Below are positions 24,324 to 62,706 of a DNA stretch of 64,000 nt, in pieces (positions within the stretch are counted from its first letter, which is position 1; every line of letters begins with the position of its first letter). The stretch is from Escherichia coli (GTDB lineage: Bacteria > Pseudomonadota > Gammaproteobacteria > Enterobacterales > Enterobacteriaceae). A program made the position numbers and the translations under genes. The notes beneath the pieces are model-generated. The model was not told where the DNA came from. It did no database searches and saw nothing but the letters and a program-made list of their open reading frames with translations. Location of the stretch: NCBI RefSeq assembly GCF_009931435.1, contig NZ_CP043414.1; one strand, 5' to 3'.

Positions 24324-26342
24324 ATGTTACGTAATGGAAATAAATATCTCCTGATGCTGGTGAGTATAATTATGCTCACTGCGTGCATTAGCCAGTCAAG
24401 AACATCATTTATACCGCCACAGGATCGCGAATCTTTACTCGCCGAGCAACCGTGGCCGCATAATGGTTTTGTGGCGATTTCATGGCATAACGTTGAAGAC
24501 GAAGCTGCCGACCAGCGTTTTATGTCAGTGCGGACATCAGCACTGCGTGAACAATTTGCCTGGCTGCGCGAGAACGGTTATCAACCGGTCAGTATTGCTC
24601 AAATTCGTGAAGCACATCGAGGAGGAAAACCGCTACCGGAAAAAGCAGTAGTGCTGACTTTTGATGACGGCTACCAGAGTTTTTATACCCGCGTCTTCCC
24701 AATTCTTCAGGCCTTCCAGTGGCCTGCTGTATGGGCCCCCGTCGGCAGTTGGGTCGATACGCCAGCGGATGAACAAGTAAAATTTGGCGATGAGATGGTC
24801 GATCGAGAATATTTTGCCACGTGGCAACAAGTGCGAGAAGTTGCGCGTTCCCGGCTCGTTGAGGTCGCTTCTCATACATGGAATTCTCACTACGGTATTC
24901 AGGCTAATGCCACCGGCAGCTTATTGCCTGTATATGTAAATCGTGCATATTTTACTGACCACGCACGGTATGAAACCGCAGCAGAATACCGGGAAAGAAT
25001 GCGTCTGGATGCTGTAAAAATGACGGAATACCTGCGTACAAAGGCTAAGGTAAATCCACACGTTTTTGTTTGGCCTTATGGTGAAGCGAATGGCATAGCG
25101 ATAGAGGAATTAAAAAAACTCGGTTATGACATGTTCTTCACCCTTGAATCAGGTTTGGCAAATGCGTCACAATTGGATTCCATTCCGCGAGTATTAATCG
25201 CCAATAATCCCTCATTAAAAGAGTTTGCCCAGCAAATTATTACCGTACAGGAAAAATCATCACAACGGGTAATGCATATCGATCTTGATTACGTTTATGA
25301 CGAAAACCGCCAGCAAATGGATCGCAATATTGATGTGCTAATTCAGCGGGTGAAAGATATGCAAATATCAACCGTGTATTTGCAGGCATTTGCTGATCCC
25401 GATGGTGATGGGCTGGTCAAAGAGGTCTGGTTTCCAAATCGTTTGCTACCAATGAAAGCAGATATTTTTAGTCGGGTTGCCTGGCAATTACGTACCCGCT
25501 CAGGTGTAAACATCTATGCGTGGATGCCGGTATTAAGCTGGGATTTAGATCCCACATTAACGCGAGTAAAATATTTACCAACAGGGGAGAAAAAAGCACA
25601 AATTCATCCTGAACAATATCGCCGTCTATCTCCTTTTGATGACAGGGTCAGAGCACAAGTTGGCATGTTATATGAAGATCTTGCCGGACATGCTGCTTTT
25701 GATGGCATATTGTTCCACGATGATGCTTTGCTTTCAGATTATGAAGATGCCAGTGCACCGGCTATCACGGCTTATCAGCAAGCAGGCTTTAGCGGGAGTC
25801 TGAGCGAAATTCGACAAAACCCGGAGCAATTTAAACAGTGGACCCGCTTTAAAAGTCGTGCGTTAACTGACTTCACTTTAGAACTTAGTGCGCGCGTAAA
25901 AGCCATTCGCGGTCCACATGTTAAAACTGCACGAAATATTTTTGCACTTCCGGTAATACAACCTGAAAGTGAAGCCTGGTTTGCACAGAATTATGCTGAT
26001 TTCCTAAAAAGCTATGACTGGACCGCTATTATGGCTATGCCTTATATGGAAGGTGTCGCAGAAAAATCGGCTGACCAATGGTTAATACAATTGACCAATC
26101 AAATTAAAAACATCCCTCAGGCTAAAGACAAATCTATTTTAGAATTACAGGCACAAAACTGGCAGAAAAATGGTCAGCATCAGGCTATTTCTTCGCAACA
26201 ACTCGCTCACTGGATGAGCCTATTACAACTGAATGGAATGAAAAACTATGGTTATTATCCCGACAATTTTCTGCATAACCAACCTGAAATAGACGTTATT
26301 CGTCCTGAGTTTTCAACAGCCTGGTATCCGAAAAATGATTAA
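24324..26342 (+). CDS. pgaB: PGA N-deacetylase lipoprotein PgaB
   Basis: 672-aa ORF with lipobox (MLTAC) and polysaccharide deacetylase motif (TFDDGY). Confidence 0.95.
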
Positions 26343-27660
26343 TCGCATCGTATCGTTTTTTATATTATGTCTGGTGTTATGCATACCCCTATGCGTAGCG
26401 TACTTTCACTCTGGTGAACTGATGATGAGGTTCGTTTTCTTCTGGCCGTTTTTTATGTCCATTATGTGGATTGTTGGCGGCGTCTATTTCTGGGTATATC
26501 GTGAACGCCACTGGCCGTGGGGAGAAAACGCACCAGCTCCCCAGTTGAAAGATAATCCGTCTATCTCCATTATCATTCCCTGTTTTAATGAGGAGAAAAA
26601 CGTTGAGGAAACCATACACGCCGCTTTAGCACAGCGTTATGAGAACATTGAAGTTATTGCCGTAAATGACGGTTCAACAGACAAAACCCGTGCCATCCTG
26701 GATCGCATGGCTGCACAAATTCCCCACCTGCGGGTCATTCATCTGGCGCAAAACCAGGGGAAAGCCATTGCGCTTAAAACCGGAGCTGCCGCGGCGAAAA
26801 GTGAATATCTGGTGTGCATTGATGGCGATGCGTTATTAGACCGCGATGCGGCGGCATATATTGTGGAACCGATGTTGTACAACCCGCGTGTGGGTGCCGT
26901 AACCGGTAATCCTCGTATTCGAACACGTTCTACCCTGGTGGGTAAAATTCAGGTTGGCGAGTATTCCTCAATTATTGGTTTGATCAAGCGAACCCAGCGT
27001 ATCTATGGAAACGTATTTACCGTTTCTGGTGTTATTGCCGCATTTCGTCGCAGCGCCCTGGCAGAAGTGGGTTACTGGAGTGACGATATGATCACCGAAG
27101 ATATTGATATTAGCTGGAAGCTGCAGTTGAATCAGTGGACGATTTTTTACGAGCCACGGGCGCTGTGCTGGATATTAATGCCTGAAACGTTAAAAGGGCT
27201 GTGGAAACAGCGCCTGCGCTGGGCTCAGGGCGGTGCAGAAGTATTCCTCAAAAATATGACAAGGCTATGGCGCAAAGAAAACTTTCGAATGTGGCCACTG
27301 TTTTTTGAATACTGTCTGACGACAATATGGGCCTTTACCTGCCTGGTCGGTTTCATTATTTACGCAGTCCAACTTGCAGGTGTACCGTTAAATATTGAAT
27401 TGACACATATCGCTGCGACACATACTGCCGGAATATTATTGTGTACGTTATGTTTACTGCAATTTATTGTCAGCCTGATGATCGAGAATCGCTATGAGCA
27501 TAATCTGACTTCATCGCTTTTCTGGATTATTTGGTTCCCGGTTATTTTCTGGATGCTGAGCCTGGCAACGACATTGGTATCATTTACACGAGTCATGTTG
27601 ATGCCTAAAAAGCAACGCGCCCGTTGGGTAAGTCCCGATCGAGGGATTCTGAGAGGTTAA
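26335..27660 (+). CDS. pgaC: PGA synthase glycosyltransferase (GT2) PgaC
   Basis: 441-aa ORF with GT2 motifs (DGD, QRLRW); 8-nt overlap with pgaB. Confidence 0.95.
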
Positions 27661-27661
27661 T

Positions 27662-28075
27662 ATGAACAATTTAATTATTACGACCCGACAATCGCCAGTA
27701 CGTTTAATGGTTGATTATGTTGCCACAACCATCTTATGGACATTATTTGCTTTGTTCATATTCTTATTCACCATGGATCTGCTGACGGGTTATTACTGGC
27801 AAAGTGAGGCCAGAAGCCGACTTCAGTTCTATTTTTTGCTGGCAGTGGCGAATGCCGTCGTGTTAATTGTCTGGGCGCTGTACAATAAGCTGCGTTTTCA
27901 AAAACAGCAGCATCATGCAGCCTACCAATATACGCCGCAAGAATATGCAGAGAGCTTAGCAATACCTGATGAGCTCTATCAGCAACTACAAAAAAGCCAC
28001 AGGATGAGCGTACACTTCACCAGCCAGGGGCAAATAAAAATGGTTGTTTCAGAAAAAGCGCTAGTCCGGGCATAA
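27662..28075 (+). CDS. pgaD: PGA synthesis accessory membrane protein PgaD
   Basis: 137-aa ORF with two TM segments, immediately after pgaC. Confidence 0.92.
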
Positions 28076-28088
28076 ACACCCAAAACAA

Positions 28089-28107
28089 AGCCCGGTTCGC
28101 CCGGGCT
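28089..28107. terminator. Hairpin (gcccgg-ttcgc-ccgggc) between convergent pgaD and phoH
   Basis: 6-bp GC stem; on the minus strand it is followed by a T-rich run, so likely the phoH terminator and possibly bidirectional. Confidence 0.5.
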
Positions 28108-28124
28108 CTGCGCCGATAATACAC

Positions 28125-29189
28125 TTAACTGTATGCATGTAGCGTACGTTGGCAAAGTGCCGAACGTACGCAATCCTCTTTACCGAATCGGACGATCCCG
28201 ACCATTTCATCTTCTTCGAAACGTTCCAGCGCGTCACTTAATCCGGAGCGCACGCCGCGAGGCAAATCGCATTGCGTGATATCACCGTTGACGATAACCG
28301 TCACGTTCTCCCCGAGGCGGGTTAAAAACATTTTCATTTGCGCGGCAGTCACATTCTGCGCCTCGTCAAGAATGACGACTGCATTTTCAAAGGTACGTCC
28401 ACGCATATAGGCGAACGGCGCGATTTCCACCTTCCCTATTTCCGGTCGCAGGCAGTACTGCATAAAGGAAGCCCCTAAGCGCCGGACCAGCACGTCGTAG
28501 ACCGGACGAAAATAGGGAGCAAACTTTTCTGCGATATCTCCAGGTAAGAAGCCAAGATCTTCATCGGCTTGCAGAACTGGACGGGTGACGATAATCCTGT
28601 CGACATCCTTATGTATCAGGGCCTCTGCCGCTTTTGCTGCGCTGATCCAGGTTTTTCCGCACCCGGCTTCGCCGGTGGCGAATATCAGCTGCTTACTCTC
28701 AATAGCCTTCAGATAGTGCAATTGCGCTTCATTTCGCGCGAGGATGGGCGAGGTATCGCGACTGTCGCGGGCCATACCAATGGCTTCTACGCCGCTCATC
28801 TGCACAAGCGAGGTGACCGATTCTTCTTCACGCTGCTTATGGCTGCGCGAATCCCGTCTCAGCACACGTTTTGCCTCGCGACGAGCTTTGATCACTGCTT
28901 TTTGTCTTCCCATGGAGAGCACCTTGAGTTGTTTGTATTCATCACACGCGCCGTTGGCAGCGCGATTATGCGCACGAACATCAGAGGGTTGGCTTCCTTG
29001 TAAGCCATAGTTTGCTTTTGGATAAAATGCCGAAAAACGGCTACGCGCACCGTTTACGGCGTCGGTAACACATGAAAAGAAAGGTTGAGGTTGAAAATGC
29101 AAAGTGACGAGATGACTACCGGAGGAGAAATCTCCGCGAGTGGTGGAGCGTTGCTTAACAAAACATTGTCCAGTACAGGACGTTACCAT
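28125..29189 (-). CDS. phoH: Phosphate-starvation-inducible ATPase PhoH (PsiH)
   Basis: 354-aa ORF with Walker A (GEAGCGKT); recognised as PhoH. Confidence 0.95.
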   Translation of the reverse strand: MVTSCTGQCFVKQRSTTRGDFSSGSHLVTLHFQPQPFFSCVTDAVNGARSRFSAFYPKANYGLQGSQPSDVRAHNRAANGACDEYKQLKVLSMGRQKAVIKARREAKRVLRRDSRSHKQREEESVTSLVQMSGVEAIGMARDSRDTSPILARNEAQLHYLKAIESKQLIFATGEAGCGKTWISAAKAAEALIHKDVDRIIVTRPVLQADEDLGFLPGDIAEKFAPYFRPVYDVLVRRLGASFMQYCLRPEIGKVEIAPFAYMRGRTFENAVVILDEAQNVTAAQMKMFLTRLGENVTVIVNGDITQCDLPRGVRSGLSDALERFEEDEMVGIVRFGKEDCVRSALCQRTLHAYS

Positions 29190-29338
29190 CCGCGATCTCC
29201 ATAGTGACTGACTATCACTGCCGGGAACTTCCGCTGCTACTTAATAATTACAACAGATCTCGCATTCATTGCAACAATATATTCACTTATATTTAACTAT
29301 AAAACACCATTTCAGTGACATTAGTTTCTACTGGAAAG

Positions 29339-29356
29339 ATGACAGAGTGATGACAG
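29339..29356 (-). promoter_or_regulatory. Pho box (PhoB binding site) upstream of phoH
   Basis: Minus-strand sequence CTGTCATCACTCTGTCAT: two CTGTCAT direct repeats separated by 4 nt (11-nt periodicity), matching the Pho box consensus, about 150 bp upstream of phoH. Confidence 0.6.
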
Positions 29357-29387
29357 TGATGAAAAAAGCTGTGTGCTTTCAGCAGGA

Positions 29388-29552
29388 TTCGCATCAGGCA
29401 TCAACGCACGAACGCCGGATGCGGCGTGACCGCCTTATCCTGCCTACCAAACCCGCACCGATTGTAGGCATGATAAGACGCGCAAGCGTCGCATCAGGCA
29501 TCAGCGCACGAGCGCACGAACGCCTGGTACGGCGTAAACGCCTTATACGCCT
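29388..29552. repeat. REP/BIME cluster between phoH upstream region and efeB 3' end
   Basis: Several REP-like palindromic units (gccggatgcggcgtgaccgccttatcc, tgtaggcatgataagacgcg..., gcatcaggca). Confidence 0.6.
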
Positions 29553-29559
29553 AAAAACA

Positions 29560-30831
29560 TTAAACCCGCAATAATGCGCTTCCGAGATAATCGCTCGCGT
29601 CCTTCACCCCCGGCAGCGCAAAAAAATAACCGCCGCCGATGGGTTTAACGTATTCCTCCAGCGCTTCACCATTGAGCCTTTTTTGTACTGTCAGGAAGCC
29701 CTTTTCCAGATCGTGTTGGTAGCAGACAAACAGCAACCCCATATCCAGTTGCCCGGAATTGGTGACGCCCAACGAATAACTGTAGCCACGACGCAGCATC
29801 AGGCTGGACTCGCTCTCCGCCGTGCGGGGATTCGCCAGCCGGATATGGCTGTCCAGCGCGATCACCTTCCCTTCCGGATCACTGGCATAATCGGGAACAT
29901 CATGCTCATGCTGCATTCCCAGCGGCGCACCGGTTTGCTTATCGCGACCAAAAATTGTCTGCTGTTCTTTCAGCGGCGTTCTGTCCCAAAATTCCACTCG
30001 AAACTGAATCAAACGCACCGCCTGGTAGCTGCCACCGATTGTCCACGCAGGCTCCTGCTGATCTGCCGTTACCCACACCACTTTTTGCATCAACTTATCA
30101 TTCTGGCTATCGGGATTGGCAGTGCCGTCTTTGAAACCCAGCAAATTAATCGGCGTCTCTTTGCCTTTACTACGCGCTGCGTGATCGGAAATAAACCCTT
30201 CCCGCTTCCAGCGCACACTGAGCAAATCCGGCGTATGTTTGATGATATCGCGCAGCGCATGGATCACCGTGTCCTGGGTGTTGGCGCAAATTTGTAGCAA
30301 CACATCACCATGACATAACGCCGCATCCAGCGAGTCGTTGGGGAAACGCGTCATCTTCTGCAACTTTTTCGGCATCTGTGGCGCAAGACCAAACCGTTCA
30401 TCAAACAACGAGTGACCAACTGACAACGTGATGGTGAGATTGTCGGGCGCAATGTAGCCGCCAAGAATGCCGGAATCGAGTGGTGGCAGGCGCGGATTTG
30501 GCGTTTCTGGTGCTGCTCCGCCCTGAGTCAGAAAAGCAAAACGCTGAGTCAACAAGCGAAACAATCGCTCAAGATCAGCTTTATCGCTGGCAAGCACATC
30601 AAACGCCACCAGCATCATTGCCGCCTGCTGCGGCGTCAGAATACCCGCCTGATGTTCGCCATAAAACGGCTGCGCTTCACTGCGCGCATCCGGTGAAAGC
30701 GTCCCCGGCGCACTTTGCGTTTTTTGAGCATGCGCTACCGGACAACTTCCTGCCAGTGCCAGCGCGCCAATCCCTTTCAGTAAACGTCGGCGTGACGGTT
30801 CATTCACGCCGTTTTCATCTTCATACTGCAT
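29560..30831 (-). CDS. efeB: Dye-decolorizing (DyP) peroxidase / deferrochelatase EfeB, Tat-secreted
   Basis: 423-aa ORF with twin-arginine signal ([17 protein letters not shown]); recognised as EfeB/YcdB. Confidence 0.95.
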
Positions 30832-30836
30832 AACGC

Positions 30837-31964
30837 TTAATCCAGTCCCAGCACACCACGAAGTTGCGCCAGATCTTCCGCCAGCGCAGTAATCGGCCCT
30901 TTCAGCGCATTACGGTCGGCATCGGTCAGCTTGTCGTAAGTTTCATAACCGTCTTTGGTTCGGTATTTCGCCAGAATGGTATCTACCTTTTTGAAGTTGG
31001 CATCGACTTTTGCCAGCAGTTCCGGGTTGGCTTTTTGCAGTTGCGGACGCAGCAGATCGACAATTTTCTGCGAGCCTTCAACGTTAGCCTGGAAGTCCCA
31101 CAGATCGGTGTGGCTGTAGCGATCTTCTTCACCGCTGATTTTGCTGGCTGCCACTTCCTCAATCAGTCCGGCTGCGCCGCCGACCACTTTTGAAGGTGGG
31201 AAAGCCAGTTCACTGATCCGTTTTTGTAAATCGACCACATCGGTATAAAGCTGGTCAGCATACTGATCCATTCCTTTGGTGGTGTTGTCGCCAAACAATG
31301 CTTTTTCCAGACGGTGGAAACCGGTGAATTTCGGATCGCCGGCTTTTTGCTCGTAATCATCTTCACGGGCGTCAATGCTACCATCCAGATCAGAGAACAG
31401 CTCAGCAATCGGTTCAATGCGCTCATAGTGCTGGCGCGTCGGCGCATACAGTGCTTTCGCTTTTTCGATATCGCCTGCTTTAATAGCGTCGGTAAATGCT
31501 TTGGTGTCGGTCACCAGCTGCGTGGTTTCCGCCATGACATACGCTTTATATGCAGTAATTGCACCACCAAGACTTAACAGCGCATCACTTTGCGTCGCAT
31601 CCGCCGTTGCTTCACCTTTAACGATCAACTTCCCTTTCGGGTTAGTCAGCAGACCGCAGGTCATATCGTATTCGCCAGGCTGTAAATTCGCCGTCATTTT
31701 CTGGCTAAAACCAGGGGCGATATTTTCCCGCTCTTCCACCACCATCACGCCTTTGAGGATCTCCCACTCCAGCGCCTTCTGGCTGTGGTTCTGAATAATG
31801 AACTGTGTTTTCCCGGCGTTAACCGTAATGGTCATCGGTTCGCACTGTTTATCCGTCACGGTCACTTTGACCTGCGGAACATCAGCAGCGTTAGCCATAA
31901 AAGCAGAGGAGAACAGCGCAGCCACGCTTAATTGCAGTGCACTATGGCGGAAGTTAATGGTCAT
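30837..31964 (-). CDS. efeO: Periplasmic iron uptake protein EfeO (cupredoxin + M75 peptidase-like)
   Basis: 375-aa ORF with signal peptide; recognised as EfeO/YcdO. Confidence 0.95.
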
Positions 31965-32021
31965 GACGAGACTATCCCTTTAAAGTATGTTGTAACTAAG
32001 CAAGAGTTTGCGTCATTTTCG

Positions 32022-32852
32022 TTACGCGGAGCGAGACGCTGTCGCCCCTGCGCGCGGCGGCAGAGTAAATGCCACCAGCGCCGGGATGAGATAAATAAAC
32101 CAGACGGCGACTTCGCTGACGCTCGGCGCTTCCTGATAACCAAAGATACCTTCCATCAGCGTACCGAACAGCGAGTGAGTTGAGAGCACCGCGCTCATAT
32201 CGAAGGCGATTTCCTGAAAGTGGTTCCACAGCCCGGCTTCATGAAACGCGCGAATAGCACCAGCAGCCAGCCCTGCGGCGACGAAGAGAATAAACAGGCT
32301 GGTCCATTTAAAAAACGCGCCAAGATTGAGGCGAATACCGCCCCAGTAGAGCAGGAAGCCGAGCACCACGGCTGTAGCAAGACCGAGCATTGCACCCAGC
32401 GGAGGCCAGATCCCGACATCTTGTTGAAACGCCGCCAGCAGGAAAAAGACCGACTCCAGTCCTTCCCTTGCAACGGCAAAAAAGACCATCATCACCAGCG
32501 CCCAGCCATGATGATTCCCACGCTGCAATGCGCTATCGACTGCCTGTTCCAGTTGCACTTTGACGTTGCGCGACACTTTACGCATCCAGAAAACCATCCA
32601 GGTGAGGATCACCACGGCAATCACCGCCACGATACCTTCGAACAATTCCTGCTCTTTTTGCGGAAATTCGCCGGTGGTTTCATTAATGAAGATACCCAGC
32701 CCCAGGCACAACGCAGCGGCTAGCAACACGCCAATCCACATGACACCAATCCATCGACCTCGCTGGGTACGCTTAAGATAGCTGGCAATCAGGCTGACAA
32801 TCAGCGCGGCTTCAAGTCCTTCGCGCAACATAATGAGAAACGGAACAAACAT
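32022..32852 (-). CDS. efeU: Ferrous iron permease EfeU (FTR1 family), apparently intact
   Basis: ORF 32022..32861; start at MFVPFLIMLREGLEA gives 276 aa with both REGLE motifs (REGLEA, REGLES) and no frameshift. Confidence 0.93.
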   Translation of the reverse strand: MFVPFLIMLREGLEAALIVSLIASYLKRTQRGRWIGVMWIGVLLAAALCLGLGIFINETTGEFPQKEQELFEGIVAVIAVVILTWMVFWMRKVSRNVKVQLEQAVDSALQRGNHHGWALVMMVFFAVAREGLESVFFLLAAFQQDVGIWPPLGAMLGLATAVVLGFLLYWGGIRLNLGAFFKWTSLFILFVAAGLAAGAIRAFHEAGLWNHFQEIAFDMSAVLSTHSLFGTLMEGIFGYQEAPSVSEVAVWFIYLIPALVAFTLPPRAGATASRSA

Positions 32853-32908
32853 GCCACCCACCCTTAAACGTTTTTCTGAGTCAATCTATGCAAAGAAAAG
32901 TAAATCGC

Positions 32909-32970
32909 AGTGATAGCGATTATCATTACGGTGAAGAAAAACACAAGCGGAATGTAGTGATAATGATGAG
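32909..32970 (-). promoter_or_regulatory. Fur box-like sequences in the efeUOB promoter region
   Basis: Minus-strand TAATGATAATCGCTATCA (32911-32928) resembles Fur consensus GATAATGATAATCATTATC; second GTGATAATGATGAG at 32957-32970. Confidence 0.55.
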
Positions 32971-32998
32971 GAAATGTAAATTTTTTTTGAGAGAAAAT

Positions 32999-33027
32999 GC
33001 AGAGGGCAATCACTGATTGCCCTCTGC
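32999..33027 (-). terminator. Strong hairpin 3' of putP (13-bp stem gcagagggcaatc / gattgccctctgc)
   Basis: Near-perfect 13-bp inverted repeat about 45 nt downstream of the putP stop; T-run is weak. Confidence 0.5.
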
Positions 33028-33071
33028 CTGCTTCTGATTATGACGTGGGATTTTCGGTAAAACGCCTTCCC

Positions 33072-34580
<1,509 letters not shown>

Positions 34581-34768
34581 CTAAAGTCTCCAAAAAATTA
34601 TTATCGGCAATGTCGAAACTTGCCGTTATATCTGCCACCGGAACGGGGTAACAGAGTTTATGTTTTCCCAGGGCGACCGTATCCTGCCGGAAGCGCTGGT
34701 TATTCACAATCGATTTAACACACCATTTACATTAAATTTTAGTGCTCAGCGATACTATTTTTCATCAG

Positions 34769-34976
34769 GTTGCACTCCCTCACATTTTTTGCGGTTGCAC
34801 CTTTCAAAAATGTTAACTGCCGCAGAGAAAAAGTCTGAGTTATTTTTTTAATCCCTGTCATATCGATTTCTTTTATTAACATTTCATTCATTTTTAAGCT
34901 TGCTACGCAGGTCACATTTAACATGGTTGCACAAAGTTGCAACATCATGGATATTTCACGATAACGTTAAGTTGCA
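34769..34976. promoter_or_regulatory. put control region with five GTTGCA motifs (PutA operator half-sites) between divergent putP and putA
   Basis: GTTGCA at about 34769, 34794, 34926, 34936 (as palindromic GTTGCAAC) and 34971; PutA is known to bind GTTGCA in the put intergenic DNA. Confidence 0.7.
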
Positions 34977-35002
34977 CCTTTCAGAACAACAGGAGTAATG
35001 GC

Positions 35003-38000
35003 ATGGGAACCACCACCATGGGGGTTAAGCTGGACGACGCGACGCGTGAACGCATTAAGTCTGCCGCGACACGTATCGATCGCACACCGCACTGGTTAAT
35101 TAAGCAGGCGATTTTTTCTTATCTTGAACAACTGGAAAACAGCGATACTCTGCCGGAGCTACCTGCGCTGCTTTCTGGCGCGGCCAATGAGAGCGATGAA
35201 GTACCGAATCCGGCAGAGGAACCACACCAGCCATTCCTCGACTTTGCCGAGCAAATTTTGCCACAGTCGGTTTCCCGTGCGGCTATCACCGCCGCCTATC
35301 GCCGCCCGGAAACCGAAGCGGTTTCTATGCTGCTGGAACAAGCTCGCCTGCCGCAGCCGGTTGCTGAACAGGCGCATAAACTGGCGTATCAACTGGCCGA
35401 TAAACTGCGTAATCAAAAAAATGCCAGTGGTCGCGCAGGCATGGTTCAGGGATTATTGCAGGAGTTTTCGCTGTCATCGCAGGAAGGCGTGGCGCTGATG
35501 TGTCTGGCGGAAGCGCTATTGCGTATTCCCGACAAAGCCACCCGTGATGCGTTAATACGCGACAAAATCAGCAACGGTAACTGGCAGTCACATATTGGTC
35601 GTAGCCCGTCGCTGTTTGTTAATGCCGCCACCTGGGGGCTTCTCTTTACCGGCAAACTGGTTTCTACCCATAACGAAGCCAGCCTCTCGCGTTCGCTGAA
35701 TCGCATTATCGGTAAGAGTGGCGAACCGCTGATCCGCAAAGGTGTGGATATGGCGATGCGTCTGATGGGCGAGCAGTTCGTCACTGGTGAAACCATCGCG
35801 GAAGCGTTAGCCAATGCCCGCAAGCTGGAAGAGAAAGGTTTCCGTTACTCCTACGATATGCTGGGCGAAGCCGCACTGACCGCAGCGGACGCGCAGGCAT
35901 ATATGGTTTCCTACCAGCAGGCGATTCACGCTATTGGTAAAGCCTCCAATGGTCGTGGCATCTATGAAGGTCCAGGCATTTCAATCAAGCTGTCGGCGCT
36001 GCATCCGCGCTACAGCCGCGCCCAGTACGATCGGGTAATGGAAGAGCTTTACCCGCGTCTGAAATCACTCACCTTGCTGGCGCGTCAGTACGATATTGGT
36101 ATTAACATTGATGCCGAAGAGGCCGATCGTCTGGAGATCTCCCTCGATCTGTTGGAAAAGCTTTGTTTCGAGCCTGAACTGGCAGGCTGGAACGGCATCG
36201 GTTTTGTTATTCAGGCTTATCAAAAACGCTGCCCGCTGGTGATCGATTACCTGATTGATCTCGCCACCCGCAGCCGTCGTCGTCTGATGATTCGCCTGGT
36301 GAAAGGCGCGTACTGGGATAGTGAAATCAAACGTGCGCAAATGGACGGCCTTGAAGGTTATCCGGTTTATACCCGCAAGGTGTATACCGACGTTTCTTAT
36401 CTCGCCTGTGCGAAAAAGCTGCTGGCGGTGCCGAATCTAATCTACCCGCAGTTCGCAACGCACAACGCCCATACGCTGGCGGCAATTTATCAACTGGCGG
36501 GTCAAAACTACTATCCGGGTCAGTACGAGTTCCAGTGCCTGCATGGTATGGGCGAGCCACTGTATGAGCAGGTCACCGGGAAAGTTGCCGACGGTAAACT
36601 TAACCGACCGTGTCGTATTTATGCTCCGGTCGGTACCCATGAAACACTGCTGGCATATCTGGTGCGTCGCCTGCTGGAAAACGGTGCTAACACCTCGTTT
36701 GTTAACCGTATTGCCGACACCTCTTTGCCACTGGATGAACTGGTCGCCGATCCGGTCACTGCTGTAGAACAACTGGCACAACAGGAAGGGCAAACTGGAT
36801 TACCCCATCCGAAAATTCCCCTGCCGCGCGATCTTTACGGTCACGGGCGCGACAACTCGGCAGGGCTGGATCTCGCTAACGAACACCGGCTGGCATCCCT
36901 CTCTTCTGCCCTGCTCAATAGTGCACTGCAAAAATGGCAGGCCTTGCCAATGCTGGAACAACCGGTAGCGGCAGGTGAGATGTCGCCCGTTATTAACCCT
37001 GCGGAACCGAAAGATATTGTGGGCTTTGTGCGTGAAGCCACGCCGCGTGAAGTAGAACAGGCGCTGGAAAGTGCAGTTAATAACGCGCCAATCTGGTTTG
37101 CCACGCCTCCGGCCGAACGCGCGGCGATTTTGCATCGCGCTGCCGTACTGATGGAAAGCCAGATGCAGCAACTGATTGGTATTCTGGTGCGTGAAGCCGG
37201 AAAAACCTTCAGTAACGCCATTGCCGAAGTGCGCGAAGCGGTCGATTTTCTCCACTACTACGCCGGACAGGTGCGGGATGATTTCGCTAACGAAACCCAC
37301 CGTCCATTAGGGCCTGTGGTGTGTATCAGCCCGTGGAATTTCCCGCTGGCGATTTTCACCGGGCAAATCGCTGCCGCACTGGCGGCAGGTAACAGCGTAC
37401 TGGCAAAACCGGCAGAACAAACGCCGCTGATTGCCGCACAAGGGATTGCCATTTTGCTGGAAGCGGGCGTACCGCCAGGCGTGGTGCAGTTGTTGCCCGG
37501 TCAGGGTGAAACCGTAGGTGCACAACTGACGGGTGATGATCGCGTACGCGGGGTGATGTTTACCGGCTCAACCGAAGTCGCTACGTTACTGCAACGCAAT
37601 ATCGCCAGCCGCCTGGACGCTCAGGGCCGCCCAATTCCACTCATCGCAGAAACCGGCGGCATGAACGCGATGATTGTCGATTCCTCCGCCCTGACCGAAC
37701 AGGTCGTCGTGGATGTACTGGCCTCGGCCTTCGACAGTGCAGGTCAGCGTTGTTCGGCACTGCGCGTGCTGTGTCTGCAAGATGAAATTGCCGACCACAC
37801 GCTGAAAATGCTGCGCGGCGCAATGGCCGAATGCCGGATGGGTAATCCGGGTCGCCTGACCACCGATATCGGTCCGGTGATTGATGGCGAAGCGAAGACC
37901 AATATTGAGCGCCATATTCAGACCATGCGTAGCAAAGGCCGTCCGGTGTTCCAGGCGGTGCGGGAAAACAGCGAAGATGCCCGTGAATGGCAAAGCGGCA

Positions 38001-38965
38001 CCTTTGTCGCCCCGACGCTGATCGAACTGGATGACTTTGCCGAATTGCAAAAAGAGGTCTTTGGTCCGGTGCTGCATGTGGTGCGTTACAACCGTAACCA
38101 GCTCCCAGAGCTGATCGAGCAGATTAACGCTTCCGGTTATGGTCTGACGCTTGGCGTTCATACACGTATTGATGAAACCATTGCCCAGGTCACTGGCTCG
38201 GCCCATGTTGGTAACCTGTATGTTAACCGTAATATGGTGGGCGCAGTGGTGGGTGTGCAGCCGTTCGGCGGCGAAGGGTTGTCCGGTACCGGGCCGAAAG
38301 CAGGCGGTCCGCTCTATCTCTATCGTCTGCTGGCGAATCGCCCGGAAAGTGCGCTGGCGGTGACGCTCGCGCGTCAGGATGCAGAGTATCCGGTCGATGC
38401 GCAGTTGAAAGCCGCATTGACTCAGCCACTGAATGCACTGCGGGAATGGGCAGCAAATCGTCCAGAATTGCAGGCGTTATGTACGCAATATGGCGAGCTG
38501 GCGCAGGCAGGAACACAACGATTGCTGCCAGGGCCGACGGGTGAACGCAACACCTGGACGCTGCTGCCGCGTGAGCGCGTATTGTGTATCGCGGATGATG
38601 AACAGGATGCGCTGACACAGCTCGCCGCCGTGCTGGCGGTGGGCAGCCAGGTACTGTGGCCGGATGACACGCTGCATCGTCAGTTAGTGAAGGCATTGCC
38701 ATCGGCAGTCAGCGAACGTATTCAACTGGCGAAAGCGGAAAATATAACCGCTCAACCATTTGATGCGGTGATCTTCCACGGTGATTCGGATCAGCTTCGC
38801 GCATTGTGTGAAGCCGTTGCCGCGCGGGATGGTGCAATTGTTTCAGTGCAGGGTTTTGCCCGTGGCGAAAGCAATATCCTTCTGGAACGGCTGTATATCG
38901 AACGCTCGCTGAGCGTGAATACCGCTGCCGCTGGCGGTAACGCCAGTTTAATGACGATCGGTTAA
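35003..38965 (+). CDS. putA: Bifunctional proline dehydrogenase / P5C dehydrogenase and autorepressor PutA
   Basis: ORF 34937..38965; start at ATG 35003 (MGTTTMGVKLDDATRERIKSAA..., RHH DNA-binding N-terminus) with AGGAG RBS; 1320 aa. Confidence 0.96.
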   Translation: MGTTTMGVKLDDATRERIKSAATRIDRTPHWLIKQAIFSYLEQLENSDTLPELPALLSGAANESDEVPNPAEEPHQPFLDFAEQILPQSVSRAAITAAYRRPETEAVSMLLEQARLPQPVAEQAHKLAYQLADKLRNQKNASGRAGMVQGLLQEFSLSSQEGVALMCLAEALLRIPDKATRDALIRDKISNGNWQSHIGRSPSLFVNAATWGLLFTGKLVSTHNEASLSRSLNRIIGKSGEPLIRKGVDMAMRLMGEQFVTGETIAEALANARKLEEKGFRYSYDMLGEAALTAADAQAYMVSYQQAIHAIGKASNGRGIYEGPGISIKLSALHPRYSRAQYDRVMEELYPRLKSLTLLARQYDIGINIDAEEADRLEISLDLLEKLCFEPELAGWNGIGFVIQAYQKRCPLVIDYLIDLATRSRRRLMIRLVKGAYWDSEIKRAQMDGLEGYPVYTRKVYTDVSYLACAKKLLAVPNLIYPQFATHNAHTLAAIYQLAGQNYYPGQYEFQCLHGMGEPLYEQVTGKVADGKLNRPCRIYAPVGTHETLLAYLVRRLLENGANTSFVNRIADTSLPLDELVADPVTAVEQLAQQEGQTGLPHPKIPLPRDLYGHGRDNSAGLDLANEHRLASLSSALLNSALQKWQALPMLEQPVAAGEMSPVINPAEPKDIVGFVREATPREVEQALESAVNNAPIWFATPPAERAAILHRAAVLMESQMQQLIGILVREAGKTFSNAIAEVREAVDFLHYYAGQVRDDFANETHRPLGPVVCISPWNFPLAIFTGQIAAALAAGNSVLAKPAEQTPLIAAQGIAILLEAGVPPGVVQLLPGQGETVGAQLTGDDRVRGVMFTGSTEVATLLQRNIASRLDAQGRPIPLIAETGGMNAMIVDSSALTEQVVVDVLASAFDSAGQRCSALRVLCLQDEIADHTLKMLRGAMAECRMGNPGRLTTDIGPVIDGEAKTNIERHIQTMRSKGRPVFQAVRENSEDAREWQSGTFVAPTLIELDDFAELQKEVFGPVLHVVRYNRNQLPELIEQINASGYGLTLGVHTRIDETIAQVTGSAHVGNLYVNRNMVGAVVGVQPFGGEGLSGTGPKAGGPLYLYRLLANRPESALAVTLARQDAEYPVDAQLKAALTQPLNALREWAANRPELQALCTQYGELAQAGTQRLLPGPTGERNTWTLLPRERVLCIADDEQDALTQLAAVLAVGSQVLWPDDTLHRQLVKALPSAVSERIQLAKAENITAQPFDAVIFHGDSDQLRALCEAVAARDGAIVSVQGFARGESNILLERLYIERSLSVNTAAAGGNASLMTIG

Positions 38966-39004
38966 GCAGGTTGCCGGAGGATGCTATAACCTCCTCCGGC
39001 ATCA

Positions 39005-62421: not shown

Positions 62422-62706
62422 ATTTTACTTCCTTCATTTTGGGCCTTTCGGCAAACAGGGCTTTAATACAGAAACTACTTAGTGTTCAGGAGAGAGACTC
62501 AAAAGAAGGGGATAATGCCTGATAATGAGAACTACTTTAGTAAACTACTTTGTATGCTGTCTGTCTTTCAAACCGACGCAGCTATTAACGCATGATAATT
62601 GAGATTAAGCAATTTTTATTTTAGCCGTCCGGCGGTCTTAAATATCGCTGGCTTTATTTTATTAACCCCGTATAGTGCAGCGCAGTATTTTCAGTAAGGA
62701 ATTTGT

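Follow-up and report, generated by a model that had tools for sequence, protein, structure and literature searches.

A Pho box upstream of phoH and a Fur box upstream of efeU, both carried on one 64-kb stretch of Escherichia coli DNA (hereafter the window), raise the question of whether this chromosome retains the phosphate and iron control described for these loci in K-12. An earlier note on the same DNA had held that both boxes are intact and good matches to their consensus sequences, and that control by phosphate and iron is preserved. We examined these claims with motif scans, alignment to K-12, comparison within E. coli and across species, and published binding and expression data. Very probably, the two motifs are the two known operators of the phoH and efeUOB neighbourhood, as in K-12. 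The comparison also delineates a conserved, structured phoH leader RNA, which the 354-aa PhoH annotation of K-12 probably covers in error.

Organization of the phoH-efeUOB locus

Relative to the K-12 map, the window is in reverse orientation, as judged from its ORFs and their best E. coli matches, which also confirmed the identities of phoH and efeUOB. The gene order is pgaBCD (+), phoH (-), a REP/BIME array, efeB, efeO, efeU and putP (all -) and putA (+), then the rut genes, agp and the tor genes. On the minus strand, phoH can be read as a 354-codon ORF (28125-29189) or, from the start that RefSeq uses in other strains, as a coding sequence for 262 aa (28125-28913). It is accompanied on that strand by efeB (29560-30831), efeO (30837-31964), an intact efeU of 276 aa (32022-32852) and putP (33072-34580), the terminator hairpin of which (32999-33027, minus strand) lies just 5' of the efeU promoter. 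Neither phoBR nor fur is encoded within the 64-kb window.

The REP/BIME array (29380-29555, minus strand) separates efeB from the Pho box; it was recognized by K-12 alignment and weak naRNA4 matches, and its copy number varies among strains. On the minus strand of the efeB-phoH spacer (29357-29559), only REP/BIME units and no convincing intrinsic terminator were found between efeB and the Pho box, and published data show a 26-fold increase of phoH upon fur deletion in W3110 that is not seen in MG1655. Together, these two observations suggest that efeUOB transcripts read through into phoH in some backgrounds.

The putP-efeU spacer (32853-33071) measures 220 nt in this strain, as in the genomes nearest to it, whereas that of K-12 measures 543 nt, diverging upstream of about -100 of efeU and containing an extra ~320 nt of unrelated, GC-rich, hairpin- and REP-like sequence. 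The closest of 5426 complete E. coli genomes reach ~97.7-98.6% identity to the window in the parts compared, and K-12 reaches only 95.4% across 26000-39000. This distance reflects either a poorly represented source lineage or an unusually polymorphic locus.

The Pho box of phoH P1 is a strong PhoB match

At 29339-29356, the window reads ATGACAGAGTGATGACAG on the plus strand and CTGTCATCACTCTGTCAT on the minus strand, which is the phoH coding strand; the string is present as the earlier note gave it, with the strand, left unstated there, now assigned. The box, a PhoB dimer site of the phoH promoter P1, consists of two direct CTGTCAT repeats, both perfect, separated by the 4-nt spacer CACT to give an 11-nt period. 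The pattern CTGTCATNNNNCTGTCAT has one zero-mismatch match in the window, the phoH Pho box. For a quantitative score we built a PhoB PWM from 57 ChIP-seq sites in Table 1 of Fitzgerald et al. 2023 (PMC10294691), omitting the phoH and agp sites. On this matrix the phoH box scored 18.7 bits, second in the window after the agp site, against 0.005 hits of at least 18.7 bits expected per 64 kb in 200 dinucleotide-preserving shuffles. By leave-one-out scoring it would rank 6th of the 59 MEME-assigned sites among 65 ChIP-seq-bound regions. To call it a good match to the PhoB consensus was therefore fully right. The box lies 149 nt before the 354-codon phoH ORF and 425 nt before the start used by RefSeq and seen by Ribo-RET.

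The best PhoB match of the window is TGTCATATTTCTGTCACA (48337-48354, minus strand; 21.1 bits), 37 nt upstream of agp (47059-48300). This site is stronger in the present strain than in K-12, where the agp ChIP-seq site reads AGTCAT... and where agp RNA rose in a phoB deletion.

Alignment showed the phoH Pho box to be letter-for-letter that of K-12 (1084825-1084842), with three substitutions in the ~130 nt around it, all downstream of the box. In K-12 it lies under a PhoB ChIP-seq peak centred at 1084845 (score 11; MEME site TGTCATCACTCTGTCATC), phoH RNA falls significantly from 37,076 in the wild type to 13,375 in a phoB deletion, and sigma-70 occupancy at phoH is more than 2-fold lower without PhoB (PMC10294691). 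Binding by itself is no proof of regulation, since the majority of the sites that PhoB occupies by ChIP-seq in E. coli have no effect on transcription; phoH is among the exceptions. The size of the effect is limited, with a 2.8-fold drop for phoH against 200- to 900-fold for pstS and phoA (PMC10294691).

Downstream of the box, the hexamer GAAACT (29323-29328, minus strand) is the likely -10 element of the PhoB-dependent P1, 10 nt after the 18-mer, or 9 nt after it in the ChIP-seq register. A GA(N)ACT motif keeps a constant offset from the Pho box across genera in the alignment, and the spacing from Pho box to -10 is that of phoA and pstS. With this hexamer assignment, the Pho box, on the phoH coding strand, would replace the -35 element of P1.

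A second, PhoB-independent phoH promoter, P2, was reportedly described by Kim et al. in 1993. Two pairs of near-consensus hexamers on the minus strand could make it up: TTGCAA (29269-29274) and TGTAAT (29247-29252) with 16 nt between them, or TTTATA-16-TATATT (29276-29303). Both fall in an AT-rich stretch (29247-29303, minus strand) that also holds the ArcA direct repeats, where a 60-bp ArcA-P footprint overlapping P2 has been reported (Park et al. 2013; PMC3798270). PhoB is one modest input at phoH (~3-fold), alongside the PhoB-independent P2, ArcA and the long leader described below.

The Fur box upstream of efeU is significant by position

The Fur box (32911-32928) reads TGATAGCGATTATCATTA on the plus strand and TAATGATAATCGCTATCA on the minus strand, again the coding strand of the downstream gene, here efeU; the earlier note had the correct string and gave no strand. 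The best 19-mer on our PWM is 32912-32930, the box is centred 69 nt before the efeU ATG, and the published K-12 Fur model centres at about 32918 (PMC2189734). Against the classic 19-mer consensus GATAATGATAATCATTATC the box agrees at 15 of 19 positions, and its 4 mismatches explain why a scan of the window for that consensus at up to 3 mismatches returned no match. Against the 7-1-7 form TGATAATNATTATCA it agrees at 12 of 14, and it is the sole match in the window at up to 2 mismatches.

A symmetric 19-nt Fur PWM, for which 17 promoter regions under Fur control in K-12 each supplied their best site, gave the box (32912-32930) 14.1 bits, within the 10.8-22.6 bits that the 17 training sites received by leave-one-out. 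This places it third in the window, and since a shuffled 64 kb would yield 0.65 hits of at least 14.1 bits, the score by itself falls short of significance across the window. Within the 250 nt that precede the efeU start it is the top Fur hit, with ~0.0025 expected there. It is thus position near the efeU start, not matrix score, that makes the site significant. As a description, 'good match' to the Fur consensus is fair, if generous.

We rejected the PWM score alone as proof of a Fur site, as two unrelated AT-rich places in the window outscore the efeU box: 49609-49627 in a yccE-like ORF and 62521-62539 in the cspG/cspH spacer (16.0 and 16.2 bits), both probably AT-rich chance matches. A further Fur-like 19-mer stands at the 5' end of pgaB (24330-24348; 12.4 bits), and published ChIP-exo data hold intragenic Fur peaks in pgaB of K-12, W3110 and W. 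A weak second Fur-like element near efeU, CATCATTATCAC (32953-32971, minus strand; 4.5 bits), is present here and degenerate in K-12.

Neither the Fur box nor any base between it and the efeU ATG differs from K-12. For the identical K-12 site, a whole-genome scan with a 24-site footprint-based model gave 20.1 bits, which ranked ycdN with the strongest of the Fur clusters that it predicted (Chen et al. 2007; PMC2189734). Under iron-replete conditions, Fur ChIP-exo peak P28, labelled 'efeU_1, intergenic', falls a few bases from the Chen et al. coordinate (Gao et al. 2023; PMC10164565 supplements). The core Fur regulon of 36 genes includes both efeO and efeB, which are derepressed in the fur deletions of 9/9 strains (log2 1.06-7.67), with efeO up only ~3-fold in MG1655 (log2 1.55; PMC10164565). 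The operon is also repressed by CpxR (PMC3852070; PMC9600279), so Fur shares control of efeU with CpxR. At both loci, the K-12-identical, bound sites support the claim of preserved phosphate and iron control as far as the operators go; such control also needs phoBR and fur, which lie outside the window.

Across 18 taxa, the footprint upstream of efeU comprises, in order, TTTACA, xACATT, CTTG, the Fur core, TTTACyTTTCTTTGCA and TTGAC. Read on the other strand, TTTACyTTTCTTTGCA gives GCAAA-N5-GTAAA, a CpxR-like box. In the window this putative box is GCAAAGAAAAGTAAA (32890-32904, plus strand), directly downstream of the Fur box, with one mismatch to GTAAA-N5-GTAAA and conserved in the 18 taxa. 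A scan of the whole window with the CpxR consensus was not above chance (6 found, 4.6 expected).

Two candidate efeU promoters can be proposed on the minus strand. One pairs TTGTGT (32941-32946) with GATAAT (32919-32924) across 16 nt (32919-32946), with CTTG and GATAAT conserved, and would place the -10 inside the Fur box. The alternative, TTTACA-18-TACATT (32951-32980), with TTTACA and xACATT conserved, would put the Fur box at about +16 to +33. The box would be repressive in position under either candidate.

Both boxes are kept within E. coli and diverge in detail across species

Of 5426 E. coli genomes, 5381 contain a 36-nt segment around the Pho box and 5417 the corresponding segment around the Fur box. 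Many of these copies differ by 1-3 bases from the window sequence. In the variants sampled as examples of each difference class, all changes lay immediately 5' of the box and both boxes were unaltered; for the Pho box, three variants were sampled, covering each lower-identity class and the single partial-coverage match.

For the wider comparison, an EfeU search yielded loci with flanking sequence from 80 species, all Enterobacteriaceae or their relatives. In 80/80, the efeU ATG is preceded at 66-72 nt by the best Fur site. The core of this site, TAATGATAATC, does not vary among 18 diverse taxa, while its flanks do. In most genera the box reads ATCACTATC and scores 18.8-19.7 bits. Relative to this sequence, the E. 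coli box has G in place of A (ATCGCTATC; window 32915-32916), which costs 4.7 bits on our PWM. This ATCGCT allele occurs in E. coli, E. albertii, Escherichia sp. E1V33 and Trabulsiella odontotermitis, while E. whittamii retains the A. Judged by these alignments and scores, E. coli carries a version of the enterobacterial Fur consensus that is slightly weakened.

In 76 species phoH follows efeUOB, and in nearly all of them a PhoB-like direct repeat stands 430-446 nt before the phoH start, strongest in Escherichia and scoring 8-17 bits elsewhere. The type strain of E. albertii, NBRC 107761, has lost one 11-nt repeat unit (CTCGCCACTGTCATC), so that its Pho box is reduced to one half-site ~440 nt from the phoH start, and nothing upstream of phoH scores above 4.5 bits for PhoB. 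That a repeat unit has been lost in E. albertii makes 'intact' a meaningful description of the Pho box within the genus.

A structured leader RNA precedes phoH

A transcript from the Pho-box promoter covers ~400 nt before the real phoH start, and the last ~330 nt of this form a leader (28914-29240, minus strand) that is conserved across Enterobacteriaceae and partly in Erwinia. The 262-aa PhoH that RefSeq gives in other strains begins at an internal start that Ribo-RET detected in K-12, and the same study noted 'locally enhanced synonymous site conservation' in phoH, for which its authors offered no explanation (bioRxiv 10.1101/520783). Citrobacter, E. albertii, E. whittamii and Kluyvera all have interruptions in the 92 codons by which the 354-aa ORF of K-12 is longer; despite these interruptions, the leader nucleotides are highly conserved at every codon position. 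The 354-aa K-12 PhoH is probably a mis-annotation covering a structured leader RNA.

Folding of 44 non-redundant leader sequences with RNAalifold predicted nine helices. In this structure 95.3% of cells were paired, compared with 33-47% when the partner was slid by 1-3 columns; under the same comparison, pairs with compensatory change numbered 20 versus 7-12, and compensatory cells 117 versus 12-39. None of 500 shuffles matched the observed values of pairing and covariation. Compensatory changes fell in four helices within three hairpin domains (alignment columns 74-95, 159-196 with 170-184 nested, and 263-283), and five hairpins of the leader are supported in all. Folded as a single sequence, the leader is not unusually stable (z = -0.65), and therefore only comparative evidence counts for its structure. 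On that evidence, the reality of the leader structure is well supported.

Several leader features are fixed across the alignment. The hairpin UGGCUU-ACAAGG-AAGCCA is invariant, and its ACAAGGA loop resembles a CsrA site. The model predicts that GGAGAUCGC, at the 5' side, pairs over a long range with the ribosome-binding region of phoH; this predicted pairing, too, is invariant. All 44 sequences keep the upstream AUG (29189) together with its Shine-Dalgarno sequence. In K-12, Term-seq places an RNA 3' end 80 nt after this AUG (at ~29109), in the supplements of eLife 62438 and undiscussed in the paper's text. This 3' end falls just past the first covarying leader hairpin.

In an Rfam 15 search of 28000-33300, the phoH leader and both promoters matched no family. 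The sole strong match in that interval, beside weak matches to the REP-derived naRNA4, was to Ysr251, an 'antisense sRNA' family, opposite the 3' coding part of phoH (28130-28323, plus strand; 192.8 bits); this family may merely mirror phoH conservation. We found no description of the phoH leader in the literature on phoH leaders or riboswitches, CsrA and UTRs. Somewhat short of an even chance, in our estimate, is the reading that the leader is an undescribed cis-regulatory RNA, whether attenuator, protein-binding leader or upstream-ORF switch, that would gate PhoH synthesis after PhoB.

Weighing the explanations

That the motifs are the known PhoB and Fur operators is the reading we hold with high confidence, and it implies the following course of events. 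In low phosphate, phosphorylated PhoB would bind the two CTGTCAT repeats and raise phoH transcription ~3-fold, as shown for the identical K-12 sequence; with the repeats at the -35 position, PhoB would probably recruit sigma-70 RNA polymerase to the weak GAAACT -10 of P1. Fe2+-Fur would bind the efeU promoter region and repress efeUOB, as shown in K-12 and eight other strains, and loss of iron or of fur would derepress the operon. Fur, acting as a dimer, would either occlude the GATAAT -10 or block elongation, depending on the promoter used.

The operators might instead bind their regulators and matter little, with phoH set mainly by its PhoB-independent promoter, ArcA and the leader, and efeUOB mainly by CpxAR and pH, in which case 'preserved control' would be an overstatement. 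The 2.8-fold drop of phoH RNA in the phoB deletion against 200- to 900-fold for pstS and phoA (PMC10294691), the P2 promoter with its ArcA footprint (PMC3798270), the conserved leader with its internal RNA 3' end, repression of efeU by CpxR (PMC3852070; PMC9600279) and the mere ~3-fold rise of efeO in the MG1655 fur deletion (PMC10164565) all speak for such a subordinate role. We nevertheless judge it unlikely, as activation of phoH by PhoB is significant (PMC10294691), loss of fur changes efeO and efeB expression in 9/9 strains, by up to log2 7.7 (PMC10164565), and purifying selection is visible on both boxes.

Much less probable still is that the Fur-like sequence is kept as the efeU -10 region or as part of a CpxR operator, not for Fur. 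The box does contain GATAAT, a near-consensus -10 placed 16 nt after TTGTGT, a CpxR-like box adjoins it and its Fur PWM score is moderate; however, the invariant TAATGATAATC exceeds a -10 hexamer and matches a Fur half-site, an iron-replete ChIP-exo peak sits on the box and fur deletion derepresses the operon (PMC10164565). Chance matches, or inert binding sites with no transcriptional effect, would account for one or both motifs with the lowest probability of all. Such an account could draw on the inertness of most PhoB ChIP-seq sites and on the random Fur-like hits in AT-rich DNA, but it is opposed by position, orientation and cross-species conservation and by the published binding and expression for identical sequences. 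Decay of a site is exemplified by E. albertii, with its lost repeat unit and PhoB score of 4.5 bits.

Discussion

Both operator sites were already known, and nothing about them is new. The phoH P1 pho box of K-12, reportedly described by Kim et al. 1993 (J Bacteriol 175:1316), is an identical 18-mer in equal orientation and at equal distance to phoH; the site itself shows no difference, and around it the REP/BIME copy number upstream and a few substitutions further downstream differ. With the pho boxes of pstS and phoA, the phoH box shares the two 7-nt direct repeats, the 11-nt period and, probably, the replaced -35 element. It differs in its CACT spacer, which is not A/T-rich, in being a single box where pstS has two, in a much smaller PhoB effect and in the second, PhoB-independent promoter.

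The efeU (ycdN) operator, said to have been characterized in K-12 and O157:H7 by Cao et al. 2007 (Mol Microbiol 65:857), is identical in K-12 from the box to the ATG. The K-12 locus differs upstream of about -100, in its spacer of 543 rather than 220 nt and in its degenerate second Fur-like element, and K-12 efeU (b4490) is frameshifted after RGRWI, whereas efeU is intact here and in O157:H7. In this chromosome the Fur operator therefore controls a working transporter, as in O157:H7.

The window thus adds another Escherichia chromosome to those in which the textbook PhoB operator of phoH and the core-regulon Fur operator of efeU are free of mutations. To this the comparative data add small points: the weakened E. 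coli Fur allele, the half-lost Pho box of E. albertii and the probable mis-annotation of PhoH. The finding is of use mainly as annotation, and as a sign that the intact efeUOB represents a regulated, working Fe2+ uptake system.
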